Positions 4,754 through 48,832 of a stretch of DNA of 48,832 nt are shown piece by piece. The position numbers and the translations under genes are program-made. The stretch comes from an uncultured bacterium (lineage in GTDB: Bacteria > Electryoneota > Electryoneia > Electryoneales > Electryoneaceae): positions 1-48,832 of the forward strand of contig CAZYOC010000003.1 in NCBI GenBank assembly GCA_964648415.1, given 5' to 3'. The notes under the pieces are model-generated. The model was not told the origin of the DNA, made no database searches, and worked only from the letters and a program-made list of their open reading frames with translations. The number at the start of each line of letters is the position of its first letter. Positions within the stretch are counted from its first letter, which is position 1.

Positions 4754-4882
4754 TGTCGTGTCGGATCCTTAGCGCAGTCTGCGGAGATCTGACACCGGAG
4801 CAAGAAGAACCAAAGCAGACCTGTCGTGTCGGATCCTTAGCGTCGTCTGCGGAGATCTGACACCGGAGCAAGAAGAACCAAA
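4754..4882. repeat. Two 61-bp direct repeats (68-bp period), each an imperfect hairpin
   Basis: 4754-4814 and 4822-4882 differ only at 2 central bases. Stem GTGTCGGATC...GATCTGACAC. Confidence 0.85.
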
Positions 4883-36218: not shown

Positions 36219-36236
36219 TGTCCTGCACCTGTTTAA

Positions 36237-36859
36237 CAGACTGTCACAGCATAGAACCTACTCTCATTCGCCCCTTCCAGACTCTCACGGCATAGAACCT
36301 ACTCTCATTCGCCCCTTCCAGACTCTCGCAGCATAGAACCCACTCTCATTCGCCCCTTCCAGACTCTCGCAGCATAGAACCCACTCTCATTCCCGCGAAG
36401 GCGGGAATCCAGGCAAGGTTCAAGAATATAAGATGTTAGCGTTCCAATACAGAATCGATTTCACCTTTCGGTTTTCATAGTTAACATATTGTCGTATAAA
36501 GACATGTCTGGATTCACGGCTGTCCCAAACTGCGGGACACCGCAAGCTACGCTACGCTTCGGTTCCCGCCTTCCAGACTGTATCACAATAAGAACTACTC
36601 TCATCCCAGCGTAGGCTGGGATCCAGGCAAGGTGCAAGAATATAACATGTTAGCAATTCAGAACCACTGTAGTGTTCAATAGGGTCTTTTCATAGTTAAC
36701 ATGTTGTAGTATATAGACATGTCTGGATTCCAGCCTTCGCTGGAATGAGATTCCTCTCGCATTCTGCGACAGTCTGCTTCGCGGGAATGAGATCCATTGG
36801 ACATTTTGATACAGTCTTCTTCGCGAGAACGAGACTCCATGCCATTGTGATACAGTCTG
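36237..36859. mobile_element. Nested MITE array (623 bp) flanked by a TTAA duplication
   Basis: TTAA|CAGACTGT...ACAGTCTG|TTAA. Contains three 41-bp left-end units, an interrupted copy starting at 36360, a complete inner copy at 36574-36776 flanked by CTTC, and two right ends. Confidence 0.85.
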
Positions 36860-37720
36860 TTAATCGGGCATCTTCGCGGTAATCATGTCCAGCATTTCAA
36901 TAGCTTTGCGATAGAGATCGGTCATTTCATGGCGTACGGCCATTTCGTCGAAGCCGGGCAAGGCCTTGATAATGGGCTGGGGTGTCGGCGGCATGGAGCC
37001 GTCCACACCATGATTGTATCCCGCACGGTGGGCCATCCAGTTGGCGAGGATGACAGTCTGCGTCAGGCTCTCTTCGAACTCTTCCACCGGATCGTGATGG
37101 CCGCTGGCGGCCTTATGAATCTGCTCGGGGAACTGCCACCGCTCCATCAGCCAGCCTACGACTTCCGCATGGTCGGTGTCGAACTTCGTCCGTTCCGCCT
37201 CAAAGGTATACTGTTCCTCAAACTGGGCGTTATGGACCACGTTGGCGTATTCTTCCGGGTAGGAAGCCGCCAGCAGCAACCGGCCGATATCATGCAGCAA
37301 GCCGGCAACGAAGGCTTCTCCCGGCAGGCCGGTGCGCCATTTCTGTGCGATAATCCTCGCCGCGACGCCGGTCGCCAGGCTGTGCGACCAGAACTTGCGC
37401 GACTCGATCAACGACTGATCAAACGCGTTGGTCGTGATGTCCAGAACGCTGGTACCCACAACGATTTCCCGGACCGCGTCAAAACCCAGCACCACGACCG
37501 CCAGGGGGACGGTGCCGATGGCCTTCGGGAAACCGTAAAACGATGAGTTGGCGTGTTTCAGCAGGCGCGCCGTCAACGTGGAATCCGAAGAGATCACCGT
37601 CGCCAACTCGCGAGCGGTAATGTTCGGATCATCAATCAACGCCTGCACCTGCATGGCCGCTTCGGGCAACGGTGGAATCTCCTCGCCGCCCTGAATGTAC
37701 TCCCTGATCTCGTCCCGCAC
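36860..37720 (-). CDS. HDOD domain protein
   Basis: IPPLP, LTARLLKHANSSFYG, FWSHSLA and AFVAGLLHDIGRL. Confidence 0.93.
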   Translation of the reverse strand: MRDEIREYIQGGEEIPPLPEAAMQVQALIDDPNITARELATVISSDSTLTARLLKHANSSFYGFPKAIGTVPLAVVVLGFDAVREIVVGTSVLDITTNAFDQSLIESRKFWSHSLATGVAARIIAQKWRTGLPGEAFVAGLLHDIGRLLLAASYPEEYANVVHNAQFEEQYTFEAERTKFDTDHAEVVGWLMERWQFPEQIHKAASGHHDPVEEFEESLTQTVILANWMAHRAGYNHGVDGSMPPTPQPIIKALPGFDEMAVRHEMTDLYRKAIEMLDMITAKMPD

Positions 37721-45100: not shown

Positions 45101-45886
45101 CTACCCAGCCATGGTGCGGATGAAGTCGATCATGTTCCCTTGCCAGTTGGCGAAAGTCTTCCCGAACACGAAAACAAAAAAGGGCAGTGACAGGGCGATG
45201 GTAAAAATCCCTATGCCGATTTTCAACGGGAAGCCGACCAACCAGACATTCATCTGGGGAACCGTCCTCGCCAGGATGCCCAATGCAAACTCCGTGACGA
45301 GAATCGCAACCAGCACCGGGGCGCAGAATTTCACCCCCAGGATAAAGATATCCGCACTCAACCGGGCAAAGCCTTCCACCATCAACGGGGAAAAAGTGCC
45401 GCTTCCGACCGGGATACGAAGGAACGCTTCGTCAATAGCCAACAGGAGGAAATGGTGGCCGCCCATCAGCAGAAACAGCATGATCGACAGCATGTTCCAG
45501 ATCTGGGCGATGATGGGCATCTGGATGTCCACCAGCGGGTCGACCGTGTTGATAATGCCAAAACCGATCTGCCTGCCGATGATAAAGCCCGCGAGTTGTA
45601 CGCCATAGAACATGAAATGCCCCACGATGGCGGCGGCGATGCCAATCAGAATCTCTTTCAGCACATACCCGAAAAAGGCGATCACACCCGGAATGTAGGT
45701 GAGCGTCATCTCCGGATGCAAAGGAAACAGGATGGCGGTCACCATGACGGCGAGTCCAACCTTGAACTGGTTGGGGAAGGCGGTGAGGCCGAAGAAAGGC
45801 ATCGCCATGAACATGGCGGCGATCCGGAAGAACATCAGCAGCCACCGTTCAACTTCATCGAGGTTGAACTGCAGCACCTCCATCAT
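45101..45886 (-). CDS. fliR: Flagellar export protein FliR
   Basis: Multi-TM with MPFF, KEILIG, QIGF and LARTVPQMNV...GFPLKI. Confidence 0.95.
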   Translation of the reverse strand: MMEVLQFNLDEVERWLLMFFRIAAMFMAMPFFGLTAFPNQFKVGLAVMVTAILFPLHPEMTLTYIPGVIAFFGYVLKEILIGIAAAIVGHFMFYGVQLAGFIIGRQIGFGIINTVDPLVDIQMPIIAQIWNMLSIMLFLLMGGHHFLLLAIDEAFLRIPVGSGTFSPLMVEGFARLSADIFILGVKFCAPVLVAILVTEFALGILARTVPQMNVWLVGFPLKIGIGIFTIALSLPFFVFVFGKTFANWQGNMIDFIRTMAG

Positions 45887-47190
45887 GATTCAGTATCCCC
45901 GTCGGTAATCACCACTCGGATAGAACCGGGAATGGGGTCCACTTTCTGAATTTCACGGATGGAGGTGATATTCTTCTCTTCCAGTTTTTGTCCCTTGGGA
46001 AGCAGGAAGATGCCGTTTTCGGTGAACAGATCGTTGACCAGCACCATCCCCGGCATCAGTTCCGAGGCCAGGACATCCACCTGCCGGCGCATGGAGTGCT
46101 TGGTCTTGGACTGGGCCTGGACAAAACTGAGCAGCGCCTTGGACATGTCGGCGTCAAAACGTGTGCCCGCGTTGGTCTTGAAGAACTTGATGATGAAGGC
46201 TTCGCTCTTGCCACCTATCGCGGACAGCTCATCATACTGATTGCAGACCGCCAGGAGACGGGATTCGAGGGGGATATCCTCGCCCGCCAGGTTGTCCGGG
46301 TGGCCTCGGCCGTCCCACCGTTCATTGATATGGCGGACGATCTTGCCGGCACGGTCAAACCACTCGATTTCCTTCAAGTAACTCTGGGCGACCTGCGGCA
46401 GGCTCATCACCAACTGCCGGTCCTTCTCCTGCAACGTCTCCATAGGACTATCAAGCAGTTTCTTCGGCAGCCCGAGTTTGCCGATGTCATGCAACAACGC
46501 GGCGATTTCCAGGTCGGATATCTCCTGCTCACTGAACTCCAGCATCGCCGCGATGGATGTGGCGAGATAAGCGATACGGCGAGAATGTGCGGTCAAGGTC
46601 GGATCCATGCTTTCCATCAACTTGAGGAAAACCTTCACCGTATTGACAATCGACTTCTCCAGCACCTTGGTGACTTTGGCGAGTTCCAGATTTCGGCTGG
46701 CGATCAGGGCGGTCCGCTCCTTCACCTTCTGGTTGAGAGTCTGATTCCACTCTTCCAGCTCAGCATTCTTTTCCTTGAGTTCTCCCAGCAGCCGCTTGTT
46801 TTGCTGTTCGAGGTCATAGAACTCCAGCGCCCGCTGTACCGTAATCCGGATATCATCGTCGTTCCAGGGCTTGAAGATGAAGCGATAGACCTTGGCGCGG
46901 TTGATGGCGTCCACCGCAGCTTCCAGATCAGCGTACCCGGTCAGGATGATGCGCACCGGTGCGGGATCCAGCTCGACCGACTTCGCCAGGAACTCCGTCC
47001 CCTCCATGATCGGCATGCGCTGATCGCTGATGATCAGATGCACCTTGTTCGACTCAATGAATTCAAGCGCTTTACGAGGATCGGTAAACGTCTCGATCTC
47101 GTAATCCTCGTCAAAAAAACTGCGCTTCAACGCACTCAGGATGTTCGGTTCGTCGTCCACGAACACCAGCGTCCGATCCTGCTCATCCAT
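45883..47190 (-). CDS. Response regulator with degenerate HD-GYP-type output domain
   Basis: REC motifs VDDE, SDQRMP and KPW, then HSRR, LLHDIGK and ERWDGRGHP. ATG 47190 after AAGGAG. Confidence 0.88.
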   Translation of the reverse strand: MDEQDRTLVFVDDEPNILSALKRSFFDEDYEIETFTDPRKALEFIESNKVHLIISDQRMPIMEGTEFLAKSVELDPAPVRIILTGYADLEAAVDAINRAKVYRFIFKPWNDDDIRITVQRALEFYDLEQQNKRLLGELKEKNAELEEWNQTLNQKVKERTALIASRNLELAKVTKVLEKSIVNTVKVFLKLMESMDPTLTAHSRRIAYLATSIAAMLEFSEQEISDLEIAALLHDIGKLGLPKKLLDSPMETLQEKDRQLVMSLPQVAQSYLKEIEWFDRAGKIVRHINERWDGRGHPDNLAGEDIPLESRLLAVCNQYDELSAIGGKSEAFIIKFFKTNAGTRFDADMSKALLSFVQAQSKTKHSMRRQVDVLASELMPGMVLVNDLFTENGIFLLPKGQKLEEKNITSIREIQKVDPIPGSIRVVITDGDTES

Positions 47191-47220
47191 CGCTTTGCGT
47201 CTCCTTGTTCCCACCTCGCC

Positions 47221-47381
47221 CGGACTTAATCAGAATGCCAAAGGGATCTCATTCCCGCGAAAGCGGGAATGAAAGTCGGTTTGATTCTGCGACACTCTGC
47301 TTCGCGGGAATGAAAGTCGGTTTGATTCTGTGACAGTCTGCTTCGCAGGAATGAAAGTCGGTTTTATTCTGCGACATCCTG
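47221..47381. mobile_element. Short form of the same MITE family with three 41-bp tandem end units
   Basis: Hairpin CATTCCCGCGAAAGCGGGAATG, then GCRGGAATGAAAGTCGGTTTKATTCTGYGACA..CTG three times, joined by CTTC. Flanked by a TCGCC(CGG) direct repeat. Confidence 0.8.
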
Positions 47382-48674
47382 TCGCCCGGCAATGGGAAGG
47401 GTTATGGTGAACAGGGTTCCCTTGCCGGAGATGCTGTCCACCTCAATTGACCCCTGGTGATTCTGAATGATGCGATAGCTGATGGACAAGCCCAGCCCTG
47501 TGCCTTCACCGACCGGCTTTGTCGTGAAGAAGGGATCGAAGATTTTCTCCACGACCTCCGGCGGCATACCCATGCCGTTGTCTTCCACCTCGATTTTGAC
47601 GCTGCCGCCATCCTTCCGCGACCGGATCCATACTTTGCCCGGCGGTTCTTCAATCGCCTGGGTGGCGTTGACAATCAGGTTCATCACCACCTGGTTGATC
47701 TGCTGCATGTTGCATTGAACCTTGGGAAGATCCTCATCCAGCTCGAGGATCACTTCAGCAACCTTTTTCGCCTTCCCTTTAACGATATTGAGTGTGCTGC
47801 GAATACCTTTGTTGATATCCGCTGCTCGCTCTCCTTCGGAATCATTGCGGCTGAACTGCCCCAGATCTTTGACAATCTGCTGGACACGCGATGTGCCCTC
47901 CAGGGACTCGTTCAATACCAGCTCGAAATCACCCAGGATACGGTCCACCTTCTCCTTTTTCAGCTTGTCCCGGATATCATCCGCAAGTGCGCCATCCGCA
48001 TCATTATCGCCAACCTGCTCCGAGATATAGCTCAGCGCATTGACCACTTTGCCGGCGTATTTCTGCATCGTCTGCAAGTTGGCGCGGACATAGCCGATGG
48101 GATTGTTGATCTCATGGGCCACCCCCGCCGCCATCTGCCCCAAAGAACTGAGCTTTTCCGATTGGAGAAGTTGCACCTGGGTCTCGTGCAGTTCCTTCAG
48201 CGCACTTTCCAGGTCCTTGTTTCGTTTGTCAAGCTGTTCTACCAACTTACGAAGCTGCTCGGCGCTGCGTTTCTGTTCGTCATAAAGATGCCGGCGTTCC
48301 AGCGCACGTTCCACCGTCAGACTGATCTCTTCCATGCTGACGGGTTTCTGGAGGTAATCGTACGCACCTTTTTTGATGGCCTCGAGCGCCGTGTCGATAC
48401 TGCCATGCCCGGTCAGGAAGATCACTTCTACGAGCGGGTCTTTCTGTTTCACTGTTTCCAGCAGTTCGAGGCCGTTCATTTTCGGCATCATCAGGTCGGT
48501 GACGATGACCTCGATGTGCGGGTTCTCATTGAAAAGCTCGAGGCCGCGTTCGCCGTCCTCGGCTGTGAAGACTTCCATCCCGAAGTGGACGAGGGCTTCC
48601 TCGACCACCTCACGGAGCCATTCCTCGTCGTCGATCACCAGCACCCGGGTCTTGCCGTCGTATGGCTCGATCAC
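47364..48674 (-). CDS. Hybrid histidine kinase (REC-HisKA-HATPase)
   Basis: [41 protein letters not shown] and GTGLGL. GTG 48674 after AGGAG. Confidence 0.93.
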
Positions 48675-48832
48675 AGCGCGGCTCCTAGTGTTCCGTTGCG
48701 CCAGGTATGAACGTTTCTGCTTGTTTCTTGATGAGTCAAGTTCAAGGCGATTTCGCGCCGGCATAGTGGTGCTACGGTAAGCGAAATCAACGTAGAAATT
48801 GACCATCAGAAACAAGCCCTTCGGGAGCGCGT

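Follow-up and report, generated by a model that had tools for sequence, protein, structure and literature searches.

The kinase-regulator junction and the element within it

Near one end of the 48,832-nt contig analyzed here at its full length (the window; CAZYOC010000003.1, from an uncultured bacterium of the Electryoneota), the two genes of a two-component pair within a flagellar export operon are separated by a palindromic repeat element of ~160 bp, in which we found no open reading frame (ORF) apart from the run-in of the kinase gene. The whole region lies on the minus strand, and the operon has the order fliQ, kinase, regulator, fliR, flhB, flhA. The kinase gene (47364..48674; product P0001, 436 amino acids) encodes a hybrid sensor kinase with Pfam matches to REC, HisKA, and HATPase_c; it starts with GTG at 48674 (N terminus MIEPYDGK) and stops at 47366-47364. 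The regulator gene (45883..47190) encodes a 435-amino-acid response regulator with Pfam matches to REC and HD-GYP (HD_5); its ATG start codon lies at 47190-47188, and its stop codon overlaps the start of fliR (45886).

The element (47221..47381, minus strand, with ends extrapolated from a profile of its repeat unit) runs from 47224 to 47381 if it is counted as the DNA between two copies of an 8-bp repeat, TCGCCCGG. The kinase-side copy of this repeat (47382..47389) encodes part of the ..AGR of the kinase, and the last three bases of the regulator-side copy (47216..47223) may be the diverged end of an inverted unit. The flanking repeat is thus 8 bp long as it stands, 5 bp with the extrapolated ends, and 4 bp if one further base is assigned to the element. 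A sequence-only reading of this DNA had reported flanking repeats at 47216 and 47382, and we found TCGCCCGG at both positions; all of the other coordinates in that reading were also correct. In the sense of the kinase, the element consists of three forward 41-nt units, a central hairpin of the dRS3 type, and one inverted partial unit, with 2.8 tandem 41-bp units (93% matches) at 47263-47376 and a perfect 10 + 10 hairpin at 47249-47272. In the window, its core 13-mer is present 9 times where 0.18 occurrences would be expected. Across the genome, 63 places match the element, with many of them located at the ends of contigs, and similarity to other repeats drops to zero beyond ~47229-47381. The element is therefore repeat DNA rather than chance sequence.

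The last five codons of the kinase gene and its TAA stop codon are encoded by the element. After ..TITLPIAGR, the kinase frame continues into QDVAE-stop, encoded as CAG GAT GTC GCA GAA TAA (47381..47364) within the first 41-nt unit, so that the earlier assignment of the QDVAE* terminus to the end of the element (47364-47381) is borne out codon by codon. Of 120 homologues listed, the best 60 had their C termini compared, and among these QDVAE ends the window's own protein only; a search of 5.8 billion proteins returned no homologue with an identity between 71% and the 100% of that protein itself.

Without the TAA, the kinase frame would stay open for 45 further codons, and the early stop codon may thus limit the new tail to 5 residues rather than ~50. 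A substitution is the likely source of this tail-shortening codon; the other two forward units have a C at the site, and the C form outnumbers the A form by 56 to 2 in the genome. That a rarer unit subtype likewise has an A at this position weighs against taking the substitution as proven. Because the HATPase_c match stops 8 residues ahead of the stop codon and because the tails of orthologous kinases differ in both length and sequence, the kinase is probably functional despite its new tail; the insertion left the catalytic domain untouched, and the protein should therefore still work.

A genome of the same genus, G001, has the order fliP, fliQ, kinase, regulator, fliR, as in the window genome, and its regulator and kinase are 77% and 70% identical, respectively, to those encoded in the window. 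In G001, the kinase ends in ..INGRSKEAEKENDG, and its TGA stop codon lies inside the ATGGATGA of the regulator start, giving an 8-nt overlap. Alignment of 701 bases of the window with 501 bases of G001 opened just one internal gap, whose length is exactly 166 columns; the bases that follow the gap match the G001 kinase tail and regulator start codon for codon. The former 3′ end of the kinase ORF can thus still be recognized in the window at 47183..47215 (minus strand); this segment, which shows no gap against the kinase tail and regulator start of G001, is now the 5′ leader of the regulator gene. The sequence-only reading had proposed that removal of the element and one flanking repeat restores an overlap at the regulator start. 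It does so: a TGA at 47185-47183 falls within ATGGATGA (47190-47183), the junction seen in G001, and the tail reconstructed in this way has the same length as the G001 kinase tail. The open frame obtained by removing the element would be weak evidence alone, as we estimate that it would arise by chance in ~1 of 5 cases.

Comparison with other relatives points the same way. In the 18 relatives examined, which are all those in which tblastn found the kinase and the regulator side by side, the distance between the two genes was −8 nt in one, −4 nt in six, +1 to +5 nt in seven, and +14, +25, 71, and 113 nt in one each. It thus falls within −8 to +5 nt in 14 of the 18 and within −8 to +25 nt in 16, and the gaps of 71 and 113 nt belong to two distant genomes of the same phylum. 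In the window, the distance is 173 nt, and the overlap or abutment of stop and start codons that marks a translationally coupled pair is absent. On these comparisons, the tight kinase-regulator junction is ancestral, as the sequence-only reading had supposed, and has been lost here in geometry. Neither of the two outcomes that this reading had named as refuting it was seen: the compared homologues do not share the QDVAE end, and the G001 ortholog, which lacks the element, does overlap the regulator gene. Because of the exact 166-nt gap and the junctions of the outgroups, insertion in the lineage of the window genome is the parsimonious reading. We consider it very probable that a non-autonomous palindromic repeat entered the kinase gene at its last codons and split an overlapped junction whose stop codon lay inside ATGGATGA.

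The presence of the element in the DNA itself is supported by contigs other than the window. A 5,170-nt contig of run X1, which is the likely source of the assembly, covers the entire stretch with zero differences, and the junction between the kinase gene and the element is bridged by a 258-nt contig, likewise free of differences, that comes from a second sample in the same study and extends over 47315-47572. We found no DNA contig that skips the element. A scan of contigs with the regulator as the query returned only distant loci, with 26 to 37% identity, bearing Nitrospirota-type names.

Consequences for translational coupling

Translational coupling has been lost as gene geometry, with a 173-nt gap where G001 has an overlap, and to this extent the earlier statement that coupling was broken holds. 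The Shine-Dalgarno sequence of the regulator, AAGGAG (47206-47201), has been retained 10 nt ahead of its ATG; it is carried by the ten ancestral codons of the kinase tail, which are now untranslated leader. We infer that coupling may also have been lost in its effect on expression, such that the regulator is probably translated through independent initiation at the retained ribosome-binding site and not through termination-reinitiation. The element, which is predicted to fold as a self-contained module, may in addition act as a site of mRNA processing or stability, in the manner of repetitive extragenic palindromic (REP) and Correia elements.

Two results give no sign of an effect on expression. 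We found no sigma-70-like promoter or intrinsic terminator pattern within the element, the sole terminator-like site (47134-47121) lying inside the regulator gene. Furthermore, the predicted probability that the Shine-Dalgarno sequence is unpaired was 0.55 with the element and 0.56 without it, and the values for the ATG were identical. A candidate sigma-54 −24/−12 promoter in the inverted unit was rejected by eye, as the GC of the −12 element is absent.

The predicted RNA fold of the stretch (−76.7 kcal/mol; z score, −2.9) shows the element as a closed module inside a stem that exists also without it, and this leads to a different view of the insertion. If the last codons of the kinase still pair with the ribosome-binding region of the regulator across the self-folded element, ribosomes terminating on the kinase message would open this stem, coupling would survive, and the insertion would be neutral. 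The fold agrees with such an arrangement in that the 3′ codons of the kinase pair around the Shine-Dalgarno sequence with the element closed off in the loop, and the element makes no difference to the predicted accessibility. The basis for this view is, however, thermodynamic prediction, and termination-reinitiation requires a stop codon near the start codon, whereas the two are now 173 nt apart. We therefore regard a neutral insertion with surviving coupling as possible but rather unlikely.

If coupling has been lost, the locus is a natural example of a small mobile repeat that gives a protein a new tail and uncouples an overlapped two-component pair in a flagellar export operon. As such, it could be used as a test case for the weight that an overlapped stop and start codon carries in setting the kinase-to-regulator stoichiometry.

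The repeat family and a proposed route of insertion

The genome (392 contigs, 4.42 Mb, 57.8% G+C) is rich in DNA of this type. The 10-mer TCATTCCCGC occurs 330 times, and hairpins of the form ATTCCNGC-N4-GCNGGAAT give 1,322 strand-hits, corresponding to ~661 loci, with none in the reversed control. Searching the genome with a profile of 198 distinct 41/42-nt units gave 1,121 matches, and 401 units were found by regular expression. The hairpin stems covary (CCCGC/GCGGG, CCAGC/GCTGG, and CCTGC/GCAGG), which suggests that the hairpin structure is under selection or that recognition is subfamily specific; the loops are mostly GAAG/CTTC and GAAA/TTTC.

A typical bounded copy, with two outward-facing units, is 79 bp long and consists of a unit, a 4-nt loop, and an inverted unit. 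The canonical 79-bp copies start and finish with inverted CAGACTGT-type units (examples are G000:C6:1145-1223 and C77:17299-17405). Exact 4-bp direct repeats flank 19 of 32 bounded copies, compared with 0 of 192 shifted controls. The repeated sequence is TATA in 11 of these 19 copies and TTTA in 1, and in 7 of the 19 removal of the element would rebuild the intact hairpin of another copy, whose 4-nt loop has been duplicated. A duplication search with flexible shifts had a high chance background, and the strict test is therefore the one used for the 4-bp claim. The type of terminus predicts the target: ends of the TGCA type are preceded by (T)ATA in 104 of 122 cases, and ends of the CGCA/ATCA type are preceded by half a hairpin and 4 nt in 319 of 423 cases. 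Much of the tandem look of these arrays is therefore accounted for by nested insertion in hairpin loops.

By these measures, the family behaves as mobile DNA. The sequence-only reading had called the inserted element a transposable element of the miniature inverted-repeat type (MITE). That label is reasonable for the family, with its inverted terminal units and 4-bp duplications, and fits the copy at the kinase-regulator junction less well, as this copy is atypical. Both of its ends are unit starts, diverged, and of the loop-targeting type. Its three forward units have in common a private core that within the window is found only at this locus and that in the whole genome, on both strands, occurs three times in the C form and twice in the A form; local tandem duplication is therefore their probable origin.

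Another part of the window (36229-36873) holds a 645-bp intergenic composite of the same repeat system, with variant 41-bp units (3.8 copies), hairpins, and longer inserts, and seemingly with TTAA on both sides. An Rfam match to Wolbachia sRNA 46 within it (36579-36764) scored 37.3 bits, below the threshold of 65.3, and was rejected as an echo of repeat similarity.

The atypical structure of the junction copy could be accounted for as follows. The original insert would have been a unit-hairpin-inverted-unit element of ~80 bp, of a subtype whose normal targets are hairpin loops and whose insertion duplicates 4 bp. It may have hit a look-alike site, since on the minus strand TTCCCA (47398-47393) and TGGGAA (47213-47208) would form a stem in the uninterrupted sequence. 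Two more 41-nt units would later have arisen through tandem duplication at the locus. Around the insertion point, the computed empty site reads TTCCC-N15-GGGAA, which corresponds to the stem core of the family hairpin, and loops of this kind cover 0.8 to 1.4 per 10,000 positions in the reversed or shuffled genome. A pseudo-hairpin target is suggestive only.

Several observations tell against the insertion reading or against parts of it. The TTCCC..GGGAA pattern was defined only after the site had been inspected, and a looser, prespecified test of arm matches at the target, in which matches were counted against an empirical null, gave a P value of only ~0.03. The target is neither a canonical hairpin nor TATA. 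The 8-bp flanking repeat is unique to this copy among 98 composites, the family norm being 4 bp, and the ends of the copy, compared by eye, agree only in part with the commonest family terminus, at 14 and 13 of 16 positions, respectively. We found no autonomous element with the ends of the family in the assembly; 12 pairs of inverted termini lie 600 to 3,500 bp apart, with no ORF of more than 180 amino acids between the members of any pair, although in an assembly fragmented into 392 contigs this does not show absence. A single close relative, at ~70% protein identity, was at hand for comparison, so that the event cannot be dated, and the regulator-side junction is backed solely by run X1, the probable source of the assembly itself.

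The unusual flanking repeat would fit a different origin, in which illegitimate or microhomology-mediated recombination (template switching) copied part of a repeat array into the junction and the 8-bp TCGCCCGG is the footprint of the microhomology. The lack of canonical termini and the imbalance of three forward units to one inverted unit would be consistent with such an event. However, both ends of the copy, as extrapolated from the profile, are unit starts, the terminal motif of the family; the private core of the forward units is better explained by a small insertion followed by local duplication than by the import of an array; and no donor array with the private core was found. We consider a recombinational origin improbable. 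That the element is ancestral and was lost from G001 by precise excision, leaving the short overlapped junction as the derived state, we hold to be very improbable indeed: the repeat system is old, with 68, 9, 6, and 2 matches to the hairpin pattern in G003, G002, G007, and G001, respectively, but the tight junction without the element in 16 of 18 relatives spans several genera and families, excision would have had to rebuild an open frame of equal length ending in an overlapped stop codon, and the former tail is still aligned codon for codon.

Known repeat systems and other repeats at the locus

Correia elements duplicate a TA target, whereas the target here is a hairpin loop or TATA and the duplication is 4 bp long. 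We also found no promoter or integration host factor (IHF) site in the junction copy. Correia elements and other bacterial MITEs, among them the QMITEs of Coxiella, are small, noncoding, palindromic, multicopy repeats at gene ends that supply coding sequence or stop codons and alter intergenic spacing (PMC2229807, PMC5896051), as the element does here. They have no sequence relationship to this family.

A close likeness is to the hairpin repeats of Neisseria. The central hairpin of the junction copy (47249-47272) conforms to the dRS3 palindrome, ATTCCC-N8-GGGAAT, a pattern with 266 strand-hits (133 loci) in the genome and none in the reversed control. The oriented flanks of the NTS motif (CGTCATTCC...GGAATCYRG) are absent from this copy, which fits neither the NTS nor the SRM pattern; the commoner oriented form in the genome corresponds to the 28-nt NTS motif if the stem is relaxed (215 copies), and the exact consensus is present once. 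The family member G007 lacks the HD-GYP regulator altogether, and the AT-rich spacer between its kinase gene and fliR (L033:2833-3189; 357 nt) has two copies of the dRS3/NTS-type hairpin in inverted orientation. Repeats resembling dRS3 and NTS have been reported in several phyla (PMC11893778).

In Neisseria, Ssn is encoded by a small GIY-YIG gene flanked by hairpins (PMC11893778), and the same architecture is found in this genome. An ORF of 106 codons (C283:4921-5238; L068:1492-1812) has hairpins on both sides, and its product matches Pfam GIY-YIG with 54.4 bits and has weak matches in NCBIfam and PDB. A second GIY-YIG match (C176:8978-9202) also has hairpins on both sides, and homologues are present in G001, G002, and G003. 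As to SsnA itself as the inserting enzyme, we set this candidate aside, as the enzyme is reported to cut single-stranded DNA upstream of the hairpin and not in the loop (PMC11893778).

We make one tentative proposal, to which we would give somewhat less than an even chance. The 79-bp elements may be self-targeting: other copies carry the Ssn-associated dRS3/NTS-type hairpin, and the elements would enter its 4-nt loop and duplicate that loop. Nested insertion and local duplication would then build mosaic arrays, and at the kinase-regulator junction an element would have gone off target, into coding sequence that by chance resembled the stem. Were this so, it would supply a concrete growth mechanism for arrays resembling the Neisseria intergenic mosaic elements (NIMEs). 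In NIMEs, RS elements of 50 to 150 bp lie between whole dRS3 copies (PMC1797815), whereas the units here are 41 to 42 nt long and carry half a hairpin. The portions of PMC1797815 and PMC11893778 consulted do not describe, for dRS3, NTS, or Ssn, an entry into hairpin loops that duplicates 4 bp, as seen here.

Landing on palindromes has a precedent in IS1397, ISKpn1, and IS621, mobile DNAs that land on genomic REP palindromes (PMC1525189) as the present elements land on hairpins; those insertion sequences are autonomous and carry transposase genes, whereas here a 79-bp noncoding element enters the hairpin loop of its own family. The arrangement of abundant intergenic hairpin repeats as inverted pairs and arrays also recalls the REP, BIME, and REPIN systems, whose repeats RAYT tyrosine transposases mobilize (PMC3116915, PMC3333891). 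The genome has three matches to Y1_Tnp, and no full hairpin or unit lies within 1.5 kb of any of them. We know of no report that REPINs make target duplications.

The fusion of MITEs to gene ends (PMC2229807, PMC5896051) and the targeting of REP palindromes by insertion sequences (PMC1525189) are well documented. For a noncoding element that inserts into loops and duplicates 4 bp, we found no description in a nonexhaustive search of the literature, and we make no claim that this behavior is unpublished. The event at the kinase-regulator junction is a clean one of an ordinary kind in a repeat-ridden genome, and the repeat family is the more interesting lead. Its wider value is that an environmental genome has, by the hundred, hairpins of a kind familiar from pathogenic Neisseria, together with Ssn-like nuclease genes and clear footprints of loop insertion, which bears on how such arrays originate.

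A second, unrelated repeat element lies upstream of the kinase start codon, and part of it (48689..48832, minus strand) runs off the end of the contig. With the part on contig C140 (L070:45-163), it measures ~263 bp and has inverted ends of ~17 nt and CTAG on both flanks (in the window at 48688-48685); it has 41 matches in the genome. The adjacency of the window contig and C140 rests mainly on synteny because their 44-nt overlap falls inside the repeat. This second element appears to separate the fliQ stop codon from the kinase start codon, which in G001 are only 9 nt apart. Elsewhere in the window, a 68-bp tandem repeat is present in 1.9 copies (96% matches) at 4754-4882.

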